Positions 4,025 to 55,735 of a stretch of 64,000 nt of DNA are shown one piece after another. The notes below the pieces were generated by a model. That model had not been told where the DNA came from and ran no database searches. It worked only from the letters and a program-made list of their open reading frames with translations. The position numbers and the translations under genes are program-made. This DNA comes from an uncultured Lachnospiraceae bacterium. GTDB taxonomy: Bacteria; Bacillota; Clostridia; Lachnospirales; Lachnospiraceae. The DNA lies in assembly GCA_910583965.1 (NCBI GenBank), contig CAJUAE010000009.1:911-64910 (forward strand), read 5' to 3'. Position 1 is the stretch's first letter. Each line of letters opens with the position of its first letter.

Positions 4025-5761
4025 ATGAAAAGCTTGTTAAAGTACATAAAAGACTACAAAAAGGAAAGCATTCTAGCACCTTTATTTAAGATGTTGGAGG
4101 CTTCTTTTGAATTGATGGTGCCACTTGTTATGGCGGCAATTATTGACAATGGTATTGCCAACAGTGATACGCCCTATATTTTTCAGATGGGGGCGGTGTT
4201 GGTGCTACTGGCAGCAGTTGGTCTTGCCAGTTCCGTCACAGCGCAGTATTTTAGCGCAAAGGCAGCAGTTGGATTTGCCACAAAGCTTCGGAGTGCTTTG
4301 TTTGCACATATACAAGGATTGTCTTACACAGAACTTGACACTATTGGAACCAGCACATTAATCACGCGTATGACAAGCGATGTAAATCAGATTCAGAATG
4401 GTGTGAATTTAACGTTGCGTCTGCTATTGCGCTCGCCATTTATTGTGTTTGGTGCAATGGTGATGGCATTCACTGTGGATGTGCAGGCAGCACTTATTTT
4501 TGTGGTGACAATTCCGCTGCTTGCAGTTGTTGTGTTTGGGATTATGCTTGTCAGTATGCCACTATATAAAAAGGTACAAGCAGCGCTTGATAAAATTCTT
4601 GGTAGAACACGTGAAAATCTAGCAGGTGCCCGTGTTATTCGTGCATTTTGTAATGAGGAGTCAGAGACAGCAGATTTTGAGCAGGAAAATGAACTTCTAC
4701 TCAACACACAAGTTTTTGTCGGCAAGATTTCTGCCGCAATGAACCCTGTGACTTATATTATTATTAATCTTGCACTTGTGATTCTTCTGTGGACTGGAGC
4801 TATACGCGTGGACAATGGTATTATCACACAAGGAGAGGTGGTTGCACTAGTAAACTATATGTCGCAGATTTTGGTAGAACTTGTCAAGATGGCAAATCTT
4901 ATTATACAGCTCACCAAAGCACTTGCCTGTGCAAAGCGCGTTGAAAATATCTTTGGGATTACATCTAGCATGGAAAATGGCACATTGCAAGATGTCATAA
5001 GTGGTGAGAATGCAGCAATTGTTTTTGAACATGCAAGCCTCACTTATAGTGGTGGCGGTGATGAATCCCTGACGGATATTGACTTTGTTGTAAAAAAAGG
5101 CGAGACCGTCGGCATTATTGGCGGTACTGGTTCTGGTAAGACTTCAGTAGTGAATTTAATTCCGCGCTTTTATGATGCTACGAAAGGGCGCGTGATTGTA
5201 GATGGGATTCCAGTCAAAGACTATGAGATTTCCACGCTGCGAGAAAAAATCGGTGTTGTTCCGCAGAAGGCAGTTTTGTTTAAAGGAACCATTCGAGAGA
5301 ATCTTTTGTGGGGAAATGAAAATGCATCCGAGCAGGATATTGAGGATGCACTGCGTATTTCGCAGGCGAAAGAGTTTGTTGATACCAAGGATGGCAGACT
5401 TGATTTTATGATTGCGCAAGGCGGCAAAAATCTTTCTGGTGGTCAGAAACAGCGTCTTACAATTGCGCGCGCCATTGTGAGAAAACCAGAGATATTGATT
5501 CTTGACGACAGTGCTTCGGCGCTTGATTTTGCCACGGATGCAAAGCTTCGCGCGGCAGTGAAAGAGATGGGGAATCAGATGACTGTTATTATTGTGTCGC
5601 AGCGCGCAGCATCGATACAATATGCTGATAAAATTGTTGTGTTGGATGATGGTGCAGTGGCAGGAATTGGTACACACGAACAGTTGCTTGCGGACAATGT
5701 AATTTATCAGGAAATCTATTATTCTCAATTTCCAGATAAAAAAGCAAAAGCTGCGGAATAA
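4025..5761 (+). CDS. ABC exporter half-transporter (TMD-NBD), subunit with degenerate ATP site
   Basis: Six predicted TM helices followed by an NBD: Walker A GGTGSGKTS, signature LSGGQKQR, Walker B ILILDD (Asp where the catalytic Glu normally follows). RBS GGGGGA. Confidence 0.93.
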   Translation: MKSLLKYIKDYKKESILAPLFKMLEASFELMVPLVMAAIIDNGIANSDTPYIFQMGAVLVLLAAVGLASSVTAQYFSAKAAVGFATKLRSALFAHIQGLSYTELDTIGTSTLITRMTSDVNQIQNGVNLTLRLLLRSPFIVFGAMVMAFTVDVQAALIFVVTIPLLAVVVFGIMLVSMPLYKKVQAALDKILGRTRENLAGARVIRAFCNEESETADFEQENELLLNTQVFVGKISAAMNPVTYIIINLALVILLWTGAIRVDNGIITQGEVVALVNYMSQILVELVKMANLIIQLTKALACAKRVENIFGITSSMENGTLQDVISGENAAIVFEHASLTYSGGGDESLTDIDFVVKKGETVGIIGGTGSGKTSVVNLIPRFYDATKGRVIVDGIPVKDYEISTLREKIGVVPQKAVLFKGTIRENLLWGNENASEQDIEDALRISQAKEFVDTKDGRLDFMIAQGGKNLSGGQKQRLTIARAIVRKPEILILDDSASALDFATDAKLRAAVKEMGNQMTVIIVSQRAASIQYADKIVVLDDGAVAGIGTHEQLLADNVIYQEIYYSQFPDKKAKAAE

Positions 5762-5762
5762 T

Positions 5763-5901
5763 AGTTATAATTTAGCCTCGGGACTTTGTATTTACTGCAA
5801 AGTCCGTGAAATAACGTAGTAGTTGAGATGCATCAAGCCACCACGAAGTGGTTTTGCATGGCTTGATGCTTGTAACAGGAAGCCGAAGGCTGAACTGTTA
5901 C
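5763..5901 (+). repeat. three-hairpin miniature element, copy B1, flanked by 7-bp direct repeat GAATAAT
   Basis: H1 5781-5805, H2 5830-5869 (nested CCAC-GAA-GTGG), H3 5872-5901. GAATAAT occurs at 5756-5762 and 5902-5908. Same architecture as 29930-30062. Confidence 0.7.
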
Positions 5902-5927
5902 GAATAATGGATGCGGAGGGGATAAAG

Positions 5928-7694
5928 ATGAAAAATTTTGCATCGAATAAGGATATTCTTAAAAAAGTATTAAATCATATTGGAAAATACAAAATTTTCT
6001 TGTTTTTTTCCGTTGCACTTGCGGCGATTTCGGTAATACTTACCTTATATATACCAATTTTAACAGGTGAGGCAGTTGATTGCATTCTTGGTCCTAATGC
6101 TGTAGATTTTGATGGGATTTGGGATATACTAAAGAAGATGGCAGTTATTATTGTATTGACAGCAGTGGTACAGTGGGTTATGAATACTTGTAACAATAAA
6201 ATTGCCTATCAAGTTGTGCGTGACGTGCGTGACGAGGCATTTAAAAAATTGCAAATATTACCACTTAAATACATTGATGGACATTCTCACGGAGACATTG
6301 TAAGCCGTGTGATTGCAGATGTGGATCAGTTTTCTGATGGTTTGTTAATGGGTTTTACACAGCTTTTTACAGGTGTAGTGACAATTATTGGAACCTTGAT
6401 TTTTATGTTTTCCATCAATGTGTCAACAACAATTGTTGTGGTAATTTTGACGCCGCTTTCCTTTTTTATTGCGGGATTTATCGCGAAACGAACATTTAGT
6501 ATGTCTAAGCTTCAGTCGGAGACGCGCGGAGAGCAGACAGCATTGATAGACGAGATGATTGGCAATGAGAAGGTGGTAAAAGCGTTTGGACATGAGCCGC
6601 AGGTGATGGAACAGTTTACTGAAATCAATGACCGTCTGCAAAAGGCCAGTGTCAAGGCAATCTTTTTTTCTTCATTGACCAATCCATGTACACGTTTTGT
6701 CAACAGCCTTGTCTATGCAGGTGTAGGAATCCTCGGTGCATTTCTGGCGATAAACAGATATATCAGCGTGGGACAGCTCACAAGTTTCTTAAGCTATGCC
6801 AACCAGTACACAAAGCCATTTAATGAGATATCTGGTGTTGTGACAGAGTTGCAGACTGCACTGGCGTGTGCAGGTAGGGTATTTGAGTTTATTGAGGAGG
6901 AGCCTCAGATACCAGAGCCAGACAATGCGGCGGTTCTGCAGGCGCCAAGAGGGAATATTGTGATGCAGAACGTTCATTTTTCATACAATCCCGATCAAAA
7001 GTTAATACAGAATTTTAATCTTGAAGTAAAGCCTGGTCAACGTGTGGCGATTGTAGGACCCACTGGATGCGGAAAAACAACTGTCATAAATCTGTTAATG
7101 CGGTTCTATGATGTTAATAGTGGAAGTATTCGGATTGATGGTATTGATATTAGAGATATGACAAGAAAAAGTCTGCGGGAAAGTTTTGGAATGGTTTTGC
7201 AGGAAACTTGGCTTCACGCAGGTACAATACGAGAAAATATTGTGATGGGAAAACCAAATGCCACTGACGACGAAGTGATTGTAGCGGCGAAAGCGGCACA
7301 TGCGCATAGTTTTATCAAACGATTGCCAATGGGATATGACACAGTGATTACAGAAGACGGGGGTAGTCTATCACAAGGACAGAAACAGCTTCTTTGTATT
7401 ACACGCGTAATGCTTTGTCTCCCGCCAATGTTGATTCTTGACGAGGCGACTTCCTCCATTGACACACGCACTGAAATAAAGATTTCGCAGGCGTTTAACA
7501 CAATGATGAAGGGAAGAACAAGTTTTATTGTAGCGCACAGACTTTCTACGATTCGAGAGGCAGATATTATTCTTGTTATGAAAGATGGAAACATCATTGA
7601 ACAGGGAAATCATGAAACGCTTTTAAATAAGAAAGACGGATTTTATGCGAAGCTGTACAACAGTCAATTTGAAGGGAACAGTTCCGCCATATAA
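5928..7694 (+). CDS. ABC exporter half-transporter (TMD-NBD), canonical ATP site
   Basis: Walker A GPTGCGKTT, signature LSQGQKQL, Walker B MLILDEATS. ATG 5928 behind GGAGGGG; the ORF-track start at 5823 reads through the inserted element. Confidence 0.93.
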   Translation: MKNFASNKDILKKVLNHIGKYKIFLFFSVALAAISVILTLYIPILTGEAVDCILGPNAVDFDGIWDILKKMAVIIVLTAVVQWVMNTCNNKIAYQVVRDVRDEAFKKLQILPLKYIDGHSHGDIVSRVIADVDQFSDGLLMGFTQLFTGVVTIIGTLIFMFSINVSTTIVVVILTPLSFFIAGFIAKRTFSMSKLQSETRGEQTALIDEMIGNEKVVKAFGHEPQVMEQFTEINDRLQKASVKAIFFSSLTNPCTRFVNSLVYAGVGILGAFLAINRYISVGQLTSFLSYANQYTKPFNEISGVVTELQTALACAGRVFEFIEEEPQIPEPDNAAVLQAPRGNIVMQNVHFSYNPDQKLIQNFNLEVKPGQRVAIVGPTGCGKTTVINLLMRFYDVNSGSIRIDGIDIRDMTRKSLRESFGMVLQETWLHAGTIRENIVMGKPNATDDEVIVAAKAAHAHSFIKRLPMGYDTVITEDGGSLSQGQKQLLCITRVMLCLPPMLILDEATSSIDTRTEIKISQAFNTMMKGRTSFIVAHRLSTIREADIILVMKDGNIIEQGNHETLLNKKDGFYAKLYNSQFEGNSSAI

Positions 7695-7718
7695 AATTGA
7701 TTGTGCAAATTGTACGCG
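7677..7718 (+). repeat. left arm of a 42-bp inverted repeat (overlaps the last codons and stop of the ABC gene)
   Basis: AACAGTTCCGCCATATAAAATTGATTGTGCAAATTGTACGCG matches the reverse complement of 9051-9092 at 38/42 positions. Confidence 0.85.
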
Positions 7719-7793
7719 GGAGCATGAAATGCGGAGCAATCCGTGGTATCATAGGGGGCAAAATACCTTTTGCCCCCAACATCATATTATTGA
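7717..7793. repeat. partial copy (right ~75 bp) of the 28079-28287 MITE
   Basis: GCGGGAGCATGAAATGCGGAGCAATCCGTGGTATCATA...AAAATACCTTTTGCCCC is nearly identical to 28217-28293. Confidence 0.8.
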
Positions 7794-7906
7794 TAAAAAT
7801 GTACATTGTGGCGGCTTATGAATGGCATGGCTAAACTGTACTATTTAAATCGACATAAACAGTATAGGATGATAGAACGGCAGTGCAGAAAAAGGAGATT
7901 GAAAAA

Positions 7907-8872
7907 ATGATAAATAGTTTTCTGGATGTATCAGATTATGCAATTCTAGGTTTTGTGGGCGTAGCTTTTGCATATCTGTTGACCAGCTTTCTGCTGGCAG
8001 TTGGAATGAACAAACTTCCAAGGGATCATGGGCGGGAATTTGCCCATGACGGAGGGCTTTCTGCGGGTAAGCCGCGTGGTGCAGGGTTTGTGTTTATCCT
8101 TGTGTTTGTGCTGGTTGCGCTTATATTTGGAAATGCGGACAGGGAGATGATAATCTATTTGATTTTGACAGTCTCTGCAATGATGACAGGATATCTTGAC
8201 GATTGTGCAAAAGTGTCTTGGGGAGAATTGCGCAAAGGACTTTTGGATCTTTTGATTGCAGTTATGACTGCGATTACGGTGGTAAATTTTAATGGAAGTG
8301 ATGTCACAATTGCACTGACAGGGCAGGTTATTGCATTTCCTCCCATCGTATATGGAGTGCTCGCAGTAATTTTGGTATGGGGTTCTATCAATGTGACAAA
8401 CTGTGCGGATGGGGTGGATGGTCTCTCTGGCACACTGACCAGTATCACGCTGTTTACGATTTATATGATTATGAATAGAACGGGAGTGGCACCAGAATTT
8501 TCTTATACTATTTTGCTTTTTATTGCCTGTATTTTGGGTTATTTGTGGTTTAATGCAACCCCAAGCCGTCTTTTGATGGGAGATGCTGGTTCACGGGCGA
8601 TGGGACTTTTTATTGCAGTATCTATTATGAAGACAGGAAGGCCATTTTTATACTTTCTTGTGGCTTTTGTATTGATGGTGGACGGCGGAATAGGACTTGT
8701 GAAGGTATCGCTTTTGCGTTTTTTAAAGATAAAAATACTCACCAAGATACGCACACCGCTTCACGATCATGTGCGTAAAAATATGGGGTGGTCCAACGCA
8801 CAGACTGTATTTAAATTTGCAATTATACAGATTATGATATCGGTGGCAGTAGTGTGGTTGACCGTGTTTTAG
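7907..8872 (+). CDS. MraY/WecA-family polyprenyl-phosphate sugar-phosphate transferase (MraY paralogue)
   Basis: Motifs YLDDCAK, NVTNCADGVDGLSG and MGDAGSRAMG, with 10 or so TM helices. C-terminal PLHDHV sits where MraY has the HHH motif. ATG 7907 behind AAGGAG. Confidence 0.85.
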   Translation: MINSFLDVSDYAILGFVGVAFAYLLTSFLLAVGMNKLPRDHGREFAHDGGLSAGKPRGAGFVFILVFVLVALIFGNADREMIIYLILTVSAMMTGYLDDCAKVSWGELRKGLLDLLIAVMTAITVVNFNGSDVTIALTGQVIAFPPIVYGVLAVILVWGSINVTNCADGVDGLSGTLTSITLFTIYMIMNRTGVAPEFSYTILLFIACILGYLWFNATPSRLLMGDAGSRAMGLFIAVSIMKTGRPFLYFLVAFVLMVDGGIGLVKVSLLRFLKIKILTKIRTPLHDHVRKNMGWSNAQTVFKFAIIQIMISVAVVWLTVF

Positions 8873-28078: not shown

Positions 28079-28287
28079 ATGATACCAGGGTCAAAAGGTC
28101 AAGAAATCCGATGCAAGCTTGCTTGCAAGAGGATTTTTGAACTTGGGACCCGCAAAAACACCGAAAAGTAGCCATTTTTCACAGAAAAATGAGCGAATTT
28201 GAGGTGTTTTAGGATTGCGGGAGCATGAAATGCGGAGCAATCCGTGGTATCATAAAAGGTAAAATACCTTTTTGCCCCTGGTATCAT
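28079..28287. mobile_element. 209-bp MITE with ~20-bp terminal inverted repeats
   Basis: ATGATACCAGGGTCAAAAGGT at the left end; the reverse complement of the right end is ATGATACCAGGGGCAAAAAGGT. Internal palindrome GCAAGCTTGC. A partial copy lies at 7717-7793. Confidence 0.75.
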
Positions 28288-29606: not shown

Positions 29607-29929
29607 TTTGATAACCTATCCTTTCCAATTTAATATTCCTTAGGAACTGTAGAAAAATTACTGATACATCTTGACTTGTCTATTTCTCCGATTATACATG
29701 TCAAAAGCCTTTCCATAGCCGCTGTGACTACGCTTTTTGACATATCTCCTCGAAGAAATATACTGCGTAATTTGTATTATTTATTTTCTTACAATTCCTT
29801 AAAACTGCAAAACCTCATATTAATTTATCACAAAACCGCAAAAAAATAAAGTCTTTGCGATTTAATTCACAAACATTTCTTACTTTAGGAATTGCGATAC
29901 TTGCGACAGATGAAATCTGCTGTGAGTAT

Positions 29930-30062
29930 GTTACTGTTCAGACAGGACTTAGCATCTACTGCTAAGTCCGTGAGAAAACGTACTGGTTGTAAGAAAAAAT
30001 CCATTTGCGAAGCAAATTTTGCATGGATTTTTACCTGTTACTGGAACGGAGTGAACAGTAAC
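29930..30062 (+). repeat. three-hairpin miniature element, copy B2, flanked by 8-bp direct repeat GTGAGTAT
   Basis: H1 29945-29969, H2 29995-30032 (nested TTGC-GAA-GCAA), H3 30037-30062. Termini GTTACTGTTCA / TGAACAGTAAC are inverted repeats. GTGAGTAT at 29922-29929 and 30063-30070. Confidence 0.7.
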
Positions 30063-30100
30063 GTGAGTATCACGCCTTCCTGAATTGTGATTCTTTATTC

Positions 30101-31012: not shown

Positions 31013-31052
31013 CGTGTGTAAAGAGCTTACTTCTTTGCACGCGGTTTTCTTT
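31013..31052 (+). terminator. intrinsic terminator
   Basis: CGTGTGTAAAGA...TCTTTGCACGCG (with G-U pairs) followed by GTTTTCTTTT. Confidence 0.65.
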
Positions 31053-31060
31053 TATGCACA

Positions 31061-31146
31061 GACCCATGCAGAGGAAATAAGCCGCTAAGGCGGCGCACGG
31101 GTCGTGCGGCGAGTAGGGGAAGCAACCTTCCCTACTCGATTGCACA
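31061..31146 (+). mobile_element. two-hairpin miniature insertion, copy A2 (best preserved)
   Basis: Left hairpin 31061-31103 and right hairpin 31110-31138 (CGAGTAGGGGAAG-CAAC-CTTCCCTACTCG). TGCACA at 31055-31060 and 31141-31146. Confidence 0.75.
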
Positions 31147-31427
31147 CGGACACCCAAGTAAAATTTATTAGTTTCTGCTGACAGGTGCTCAGTGCGCGAA
31201 CGCGGAAAGAAAAATATAACTAAAGTTGCCTATACTGAAAAATATATAATAGGAAAAAATTCCTGGATTTGATTGTTTTTTATTGTCTAATTGGTCAACA
31301 TAACTAAAAAGTTATGTAAATTTGCACAATTTGGAAAATAAGCATTGATTTATAAAAATACATATGCTACTATTTATAAAAAGTAAATAAACTTGGAAAG
31401 GAATAAGATTTAAGTATTTTTCACAAT

Positions 31428-55225: not shown

Positions 55226-55271
55226 AAGACTATGAGATCTGCAATGGGAATCATAGTCTTTTTCTTTTTTA
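55226..55271 (+). terminator. intrinsic terminator
   Basis: AAGACTATGA-loop-TCATAGTCTT followed by TTTCTTTTTT. Confidence 0.75.
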
Positions 55272-55277
55272 TGCACA

Positions 55278-55366
55278 GACCCATGCAGAGGAAATAAGCC
55301 ACTAAAGCGGCGCACGAGTCGTGCGGCGAGTAGGAAGAAGATAAACCTTCCCTGCTCGATTGCACA
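55278..55366 (+). mobile_element. two-hairpin miniature insertion, copy A3
   Basis: TGCACA at 55272-55277 and 55361-55366. Same order of segments as A1 and A2, with point differences that weaken the stems. Confidence 0.7.
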
Positions 55367-55735
55367 AGAGCACCCAAATGAAATTTGTCAGCAGAAGCTG
55401 ATGGGTGTCCGGCGCGTGAGTAGGGAAAAGAAGTCTTATTTGGTGTGCATCAATTGTAACAAAATCGTTACTTTTCACACCCGCGTCATGCACTTGCTGT
55501 ATGGTGTCGGATCCAGCGCCAAAATGCTTGTTTTTAGGCATTGTGTGTGCATCCATTGTTGCAATTCATACCGAATGTTCGTAAATCGGTGCAAAATCTG
55601 ACGTTGGTGTGAATTGTAACACAAAATCAGTTCCACAATTAATGTTACTAAGAAGCATTATTGAAAAATTACAGTTTATAGTTTATAGTAAAAGCGAGTA
55701 GATAGTTCCGAATTGTATAGAGACGAGGATAAACA

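Follow-up and report, generated by a model that had tools for sequence, protein, structure and literature searches.

In an uncultured member of the Lachnospiraceae, the two genes of a heterodimeric ATP-binding cassette (ABC) exporter are separated by a short, structured and non-coding stretch of DNA, which very probably represents a miniature inverted-repeat transposable element (MITE) that has become fixed in the operon. The locus lies in a 64,000-nt stretch of assembly GCA_910583965.1 (contig CAJUAE010000009.1, positions 911 to 64,910 of the forward strand), the whole of which is referred to here as the window and provides the coordinates used throughout. Both half-transporter genes are intact by Pfam domains and open reading frames (ORFs) despite the element between them (Table 1), and the start of gene 2 at 5928 matches the gene calls in three genomes that encode the identical gene 1 protein (L001-L003). 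From the stop codon of gene 1 (TAA, 5759-5761) to this start there are 166 nt, as compared to 1-5 nt in orthologous operons, which confirms the impression of an earlier note on this DNA, made from the letters alone, that the two genes stand unusually far apart. The orthologues also conserve the ribosome-binding site of gene 2, which in the window is retained 3' of the insertion; in them it falls within gene 1, at its 3' end. The sole ORF that crosses the element is a TTG-start extension of the gene 2 frame.

Anatomy of the Element

The heptamer GAATAAT occurs at 5756-5762 and again at 5902-5908, and from this direct repeat the earlier note had deduced a 139-bp insert bounded by a 7-bp duplication. 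The repeat is present as described, but the duplication is 8 bp long throughout the family to which the element belongs, and the element itself is therefore delimited at 5764-5901, or 138 bp. Its two target-site duplications, the left of which contains the gene 1 stop codon, are alike at seven of eight positions. Terminal inverted repeats (TIRs) are an addition to the first description: the right one is perfect, and the left one has decayed in the window, with strain L002 (GTTACAATTCAGCC at the left TIR) remaining closer to the family consensus. Between these ends lie three hairpins, at precisely the positions previously assigned to them. The third includes a nested AGCC-GAA-GGCT and owes its outer stem to the pairing of the right TIR with a second, inverted TIR copy inside the element. 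For RNA spanning 5756-5935 the predicted minimum free energy is -58.6 kcal/mol, vs. -37.9 +/- 3.6 for dinucleotide-shuffled sequences (z = -5.7), none of which (0/200) folds as well; the opposite strand is equally structured.

Table 1. Coordinates of the exporter genes, the element between them and its relatives in the window.
Feature	Position	Strand	Sequence	Basis or remark
ABC exporter half-transporter gene 1 (578 aa)	4025..5761	+		ORF list; Pfam ABC_membrane 5.9e-47, ABC_tran 9.1e-31
Left 8-bp target-site duplication	5756..5763	.	GAATAATA	sequence; length set from 99 family copies
Type-A MITE copy, 138 bp, non-coding	5764..5901	+ (sense to operon)		covariance model R1 153.6 bits, E = 4e-40, full length
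Left TIR, decayed	5764..5777	+	GTTATAATTTAGCC	10/14 vs. consensus GTAACAGTTCAGCC (67 type-A copies)
Hairpin 1	5781..5805	+	GGACTTTG...CAAAGTCC	fold
Hairpin 2	5830..5869	+	10-bp outer stem GCATCAAGCC/GGCTTGATGC; inner ACCAC-GAA-GTGGT hairpin	fold
Hairpin 3	5872..5901	+	internal inverted TIR copy GTAACAGGAAGCC + right TIR; C-GAA-G triloop	sequence
Right TIR, perfect	5888..5901	+	GGCTGAACTGTTAC	14/14 vs. consensus
Right 8-bp target-site duplication	5902..5909	.	GAATAATG	sequence; length set from 99 family copies
Ribosome-binding site of gene 2	5915..5921	+	GGAGGGG	6 nt 5' of ATG
ABC exporter half-transporter gene 2 (588 aa), intact	5928..7694	+		Pfam ABC_membrane 9.3e-49, ABC_tran 6.5e-33
Type-B MITE, 133 bp	29930..30062	+	TIR GTTACTGTTCAG / GTGAACAGTAAC	nhmmer E = 1.4e-8; R1 122.2 bits
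Type-C sister MITE, 154 bp	55467..55620	+	TIR GTTACTTTTCACACC / GGTGTGAATTGTAAC	weak R1 match; sequence

A Repeat Family of the Lachnospiraceae

The element is one copy among many, as the earlier note had expected. The family was surveyed in one genome per species by means of two 10-mers common to both full copies in the window; these are invariant by design of the search, and the sample consequently does not bear on the conservation of those segments. More than 118 genomic stretches from approximately 33 Lachnospiraceae assemblies are represented among the matches listed, and all matches but two, which are due to chance, belong to the Lachnospiraceae. The covariance model returned 126 matches in 0.8 Mb. 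Copies occur in isolates, including Mediterraneibacter agrestimuris, Hominisplanchenecus murintestinalis and Lachnospiraceae bacterium COE1, A4 and IMSAGC_011, and are numerous within single genomes (at least 17 loci in the metagenome-assembled genome (MAG) MGBC113610 and at least 10 in M. agrestimuris DSM 111629). They measure 133-140 bp and fall into two main types: type A, of 137 bp, with consensus ends GTAACAGTTCAGCC...GGCTGAACTGTTAC, and type B, of 133 bp, with ends GTTACTGTTCAGAC...GTGAACAGTAAC. The exporter copy shares a median identity of 88% with the other type-A copies.

Direct repeats at the other copies, likewise anticipated, are just as regular. Among the 99 copies with recognisable ends, the 8-bp duplication is perfect in 64 and matches at seven of eight positions in a further 17, each with a sequence of its own, against a mean of about 2.3 of 8, and never more than 6 of 8, in an offset control. 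The duplicated targets, at 35% GC, have no strong motif in common. Phage contigs, too, contain a few elements with these ends and 8-bp duplications. MITEs are a known kind of element, but our searches of the literature turned up no account of this family; no Rfam 15 family reaches its gathering threshold on the element (the best, TD-1, scores 16.1 bits vs. a threshold of 64.5, E = 3.1), and a plasmid blastn search with the junction region gave no match.

In the 64-kb window itself, the covariance model identifies exactly two full copies along with a weak match to a type-C relative. The second full copy, of type B, was missed by a seed-based repeat scan and by a search for hairpin 2 that was exact or allowed three mismatches, and was detected by nhmmer and the covariance model. 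It is 69% identical to the exporter copy, with the hairpins kept via compensating changes, and has a median identity of 92% to other type-B copies. Its TIRs are complementary at 11 of 12 positions, and its perfect 8-bp duplication (GTGAGTAT, at 29922-29929 and 30063-30070) differs from that of the exporter copy. No clean empty site is available for this second copy, as the 92%-identical relatives are rearranged upstream of it.

Some loci hold partial forms of the family. Mini-palindromes of roughly 32-35 bp consist of two back-to-back terminal repeats (e.g., GTAACAGTTCAGCCGGAAAGCTGAATTGTTAC; L032:4541-4572, L075:6721-6755, L040:6912-6935), and solo TIR ends adjoin full copies; both may have arisen from abortive or nested transposition. 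Family copies also meet coding sequence: in 8 of 70 cases (copies in L010-L127) the upstream ORF stops at a TAA within the first bases of the element (G-TAA-C), and several real-looking genes extend 40-50 nt into a copy. Insertions near the 3' ends of genes can thus supply a new stop codon and a few C-terminal residues. For annotators of gut Lachnospiraceae the result is a defined repeat family, with two main subtypes and sister families, a 14-bp TIR and an 8-bp duplication; left unrecognised, such a family lengthens intergenic regions, fragments assemblies and gives rise to spurious ORFs.

Empty Sites and the History of the Junction

The 166-nt spacer is present at all four listed places that encode the exact gene 1 protein (L001-L004), and also in L130, at 99.6% nucleotide identity. 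The comparison of orthologous exporter operons that the earlier note had proposed does bring out empty sites: five groups of operons with 83-98.6% nucleotide identity to the window lack the element. The two genes are 1 nt apart in L129 (98.6% nucleotide identity upstream, to window position 5757) and in L005 (gene 1 protein 97% identical), and 5 nt apart in L006 (95%), L007/L008 (92%) and L009 (92%). The contention that the empty site can be reconstructed accordingly stands in part: the reconstructed junction, GCTGCGGAATAATGGATGCGGAGGGGATAAAGATG, equals in length the 35-nt junction of L006 and L009, GCTGCGGATGAACAGGCGCGGAGGTAATCAGAATG, but its exact sequence was not found in JGI metagenomes. 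One of the element-free genomes, the MAG GCA_029068555.1 (L006), carries family copies elsewhere (L052, L104), and the absence of the element from its exporter junction is therefore not an absence of the family.

The closest of the short junctions has a more complicated history. In L129 the junction (GCTGCGGAGGGGGATTAAGATG) is missing the element together with an additional 14 nt flanked by TGCGGA repeats (5752-5757 and 5912-5917), and homology with the window resumes at 5912. Gene 2 of L129 is only 91.4% identical to that of the window, and similar in this to L005; given the 98.6% identity upstream, the L129 operon is a recombinant with its breakpoint at the junction. The contig in question is k141_315050 of ENA ERZ27298402, and the breakpoint falls exactly at the gene junction, beside the TGCGGA microhomology. 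The short junction shared by L129 and L005 may be either a variant that was never occupied or a deletion. The more distant, co-linear junctions argue for an insertion in the lineage of the window.

Probable Source of Mobility

The ends of the family resemble those of insertion sequences (ISs) in the IS66 superfamily. Specifically, IS66 ends begin GTAAGCG and are flanked by 8-bp direct repeats (PMC11946415), and ISDge4, of the ISBst12 group, has the TIR GTAACTGCTCAGCA and an 8-bp direct repeat (PMC12898284). We measured these features (a GTAA start and 8-bp repeats) on at least nine insertion sequences for comparison with the MITE ends, which begin GTAAC or GTTAC. An ISGka4-like element on pHTA426 has the TIR GTA[T/A]CTATTCAGCCC and the 8-bp duplication GACGAGTT, and its transposase matches PF03050 (1.9e-64) as well as PF20042 and zf-IS66. 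Homologues on Deinococcus, Geobacillus and Bacillus plasmids and on phage contigs have GTAACT[A/G][T/C]TCAG ends, with perfect 8-bp duplications at three of the four plasmid elements examined and at several on phage contigs. Elements with PF03050 are also present among the Lachnospiraceae, for example in Anaerostipes and Herbinix; that of Anaerostipes sp. 494a occupies four insertion sites with four different 8-bp duplications. The metagenome elements L178, L179 and L173 have perfect 8-bp duplications, and their ends (GTAACTGTTCAGAACC or GTAACTGTTCAGCACC) agree with the type-A and type-B TIRs at all but one of the first 13 nt (12 of 13).

The comparison can be summarized as GTAAC[T][A/G]TTCAG for the single-ORF insertion sequences against GTAAC[A]GTTCAG for type A and GTTACTGTTCAG for type B, with an identity that amounts to 13 of 15 positions for the pHTA426 copy and with the 8-bp duplication in common. 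There is further likeness in layout: in the gut elements L178, L179 and L183 the inner TIR bases pair with the bases that follow, around a CTTCG/GAA-type loop, and the right end of the MITE is similar. The MITE differs in that its 133-138 bp include no transposase, unlike the ISBst12/ISLre2-like elements, which in Anaerostipes and gut metagenomes are unnamed and 1.8 kb long. At family level, the sequence comparison supports the assignment of the MITE ends well, and single-ORF insertion sequences that encode PF20042 and PF03050 are likely to be what mobilises the family. This would tie it to a little-studied branch of IS66, for which it would offer many natural transposase substrates.

Conservation of the Hairpins and Orientation of the Copies

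When 123 distinct copies are aligned to the covariance model, standard pairing is seen in 97.5% of the pair cells, and both sides have changed in 33 of 35 pairs, a level that none of 500 shuffles reaches; slid controls are 24-36% paired. Helix 1, corresponding to hairpin 1, is 97.6% paired with compensatory changes in 8 of its 10 pairs, and helices 2 and 3, which make up hairpin 2, have them in 14 of 14; hairpin 3 corresponds to helices 4 and 5. These values come from an alignment that was fitted to the model structure, and much of the covariation separates two or three subfamilies and thus reflects few independent events.

Gene context was taken from a crude ORF-based gene call, by which 72 of 100 copies are intergenic and 54 of these lie between co-directional ORFs. 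Within the latter group, 42 copies (78%) are in the sense orientation and 12 in antisense (binomial p = 5e-5). The orientation bias is, however, fully confounded with GC skew and leading-strand orientation: 77 of 97 copies are on the G-rich strand by local GC skew, and there are only five discordant cases. The sense bias could accordingly arise either from selection at the level of transcription or from a replication-linked bias in insertion.

Interpretation of the Exporter Copy and Its Alternatives

On the strength of the TIRs, the 8-bp duplication, the many copies and the empty sites, we consider it highly likely that 5764-5901 is a non-autonomous MITE with IS66-type ends, one of a multi-copy family in gut Lachnospiraceae, that became fixed in the exporter operon, much as the earlier note had surmised in calling it a miniature mobile element. 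It would have inserted in an ancestor of the species, at the junction and 3' end of gene 1, where it duplicated the 8-bp target GAATAATG. The element carries no gene, and a DDE transposase of the IS66-superfamily type (ISBst12/ISLre2-like) is presumed to act on it in trans. The exporter copy is most likely a fixed and immobile fossil by now, because its left end is decayed and it is present in every near-identical strain examined.

Several observations weigh against this account. A 14-nt indel sets the nearest empty sites, L129 and L005, apart from the reconstructed site, and a later deletion between the TGCGGA repeats could in principle have produced their short junctions; the exact reconstructed pre-insertion sequence has no match in the JGI metagenomes. 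Similarity between the MITE and the insertion sequences stops at the TIR and the adjacent hairpin layout, the interior being unlike that of the latter, and no insertion sequence with the exact MITE TIR was found, the best ends differing at 1-2 of 14 positions. Nor did a search for TIR pairs 0.7-4 kb apart, recurrent ORF families and tblastn matches to an IS66-like transposase recover such an insertion sequence in about 0.9 Mb of MITE-flanking sequence (8-kb pieces) or in the window, and short-read MAGs probably collapse autonomous partner elements. A viral scan with the guessed insertion-sequence end GTAACAGTTCAGMACCC had no matches, and a scan with the bare 14-mer TIR gave mostly chance matches and a few MITEs with 8-bp duplications, with no transposase. 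ISGka4 has been placed in the ISLre2 family with 9-bp repeats (PMC8024623), as opposed to the 8 bp of every copy that we measured. Finally, a purely parasitic model has no need of the compensatory hairpin changes or of the 42:12 sense bias.

This last point bears on what we regard as the strongest of the alternatives, albeit an unlikely one, namely that the element arrived as a MITE and now serves as a selected intercistronic RNA module (a stabiliser, RNase site or translational insulator) that sets the ratio of the half-transporters, in line with the effect on stoichiometry or stability suggested in the earlier note. In other bacteria such a role can be played by REP/BIME, ERIC and Correia elements, and this reading would account for hairpins kept by compensatory change, for the excess of sense copies between co-directional genes, and for an element without a terminator that is fixed in all near-identical strains between two intact genes. 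It is weakened by the covariation itself, which separates only two or three subfamilies in an alignment fitted to the structure, and by the outer stem of hairpin 3, which is simply the TIR against its own inverted copy. The sense excess, confounded as it is with GC skew, is explained equally well by replication-linked insertion, and closely related operons function without the element. In its broadest form, the idea would be that Lachnospiraceae use an IS66-type MITE as a ready-made module to uncouple or re-tune expression within operons, with the internal hairpins under selection and sense copies preferentially kept, and we hold this to be similarly doubtful; were it true, the exporter copy would govern the proportion in which the halves of the heterodimer are made.

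Far less probable is a dedicated cis-regulatory RNA of the exporter operon, such as an attenuator, riboswitch-like leader or intrinsic terminator. The position between two genes of one operon and the strong predicted structure would suit it; the element is absent from orthologous operons, the same sequence is found, in either orientation, at over 100 unrelated loci, and no Rfam family matches (TD-1 again being the best). Nothing within 5764-5901 has the form of an intrinsic terminator or attenuator, a GC-rich hairpin with a T-run behind it: TTGTAAC, GAATAAT and the like come after the hairpins, and there is no terminator-like site.

Least credible of all is a REP/BIME-like palindrome spread by a RAYT (Y1/HUH) transposase, or a hairpin element of the IS200/IS605 type, since the short, hairpin-rich, intergenic and multi-copy character of the element and its C-GAA-G triloops, which resemble very stable mini-hairpins of single-stranded DNA, are set against varied 8-bp duplications (at least 7/8) at 81 of 99 copies, which HUH-mobilised elements are not known to make, and against defined 14-bp TIRs that match the ends of DDE insertion sequences.

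Among the bacterial MITEs known from operons, the Correia elements of Neisseria, RUP of Streptococcus pneumoniae and ERIC/IRU of enterobacteria resemble the family in having a length of about 100-150 bp, TIRs and many mostly intergenic copies, often between co-directional genes, where they are co-transcribed and can form hairpins in mRNA. They are unrelated in sequence and depend on other mobilising families, with a TA duplication in the case of Correia and RUP, and their effects on transcripts have been measured. REP/BIME are likewise short, structured intergenic repeats that occur within operons and can stabilise upstream mRNA, but they are not known to have the target-site duplication and DDE-type ends that this family has.

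Expected Effect on the Operon

No promoter-like site is apparent within 5764-5901, nor a terminator-like site on either strand, and for this reason the element is most likely co-transcribed, adding three stable hairpins to the operon mRNA. A stop-to-start junction of 1-5 nt, or of perhaps 20 nt in the lineage of the window, would thus have been replaced by a structured spacer of 166 nt, and translation of gene 2 would initiate independently at its own retained ribosome-binding site. Since the junctions of relatives measure 1-5 nt, we infer that translational coupling between the two genes has been lost. The MITE in this way explains the 166-nt gap in an otherwise tight exporter operon, and near-identical operons with and without the structured spacer constitute a natural experiment on two subunits that are needed in equal amounts.

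Other Repeats and RNAs in the Window

The type-C sister element at 55467-55620 bears a perfect 8-bp duplication, ACAAAATC (55459..55628 with the duplications), and further members of its family are found at L065:997, L114:150 and L023:964. Just 5' of it, CAATTGTAAC resembles the remnant end of another element. Positions 2-1104 and 1117-1148 hold an array of clustered regularly interspaced short palindromic repeats (CRISPR), in which the 30-nt repeat GATTAATAGAAACATGAGATGTATTGAAAT is present at least 17 times at a spacing of 64-67, and directly after this array stands a type-C end fragment (...GGGTGTGAAAAGAAAC), an inverted match of 55467-55498.

Downstream of the exporter, the two arms of a 45-nt inverted repeat (7677-7721/9048-9092, 91% complementary) bracket a gene for a GT4 glycosyltransferase (7883-8872), the left arm extending over the final codons of ABC gene 2. 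The arms start with GGAACAGTTCCGCC and ATAACAGTTCCGCC, which are two mismatches away from the MITE end. We ruled out that the bracketed unit is an insertion sequence, as it has no duplication and the glycosyltransferase gene is syntenic in orthologues. The only match in the window at the Rfam gathering level is a full Clostridiales-1 RNA (RF01699, 124 bits) at 28080-28252 (+), and its 3' end and terminator hairpin recur, over 62 nt at 90% identity, at 7716-7777, just 3' of ABC gene 2.

A second and unrelated repeat family, of approximately 165-200 nt, has copies at 8893-~9000, 31045-31208 and 55262-55428, each downstream of a gene, and forms three strong hairpins (-68 kcal/mol, z = -5.3) with no Rfam match. 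Because the segment 30988-31273, around the 31-kb copy, is missing from the 92%-identical relatives L252/L255, this second family may also be mobile.

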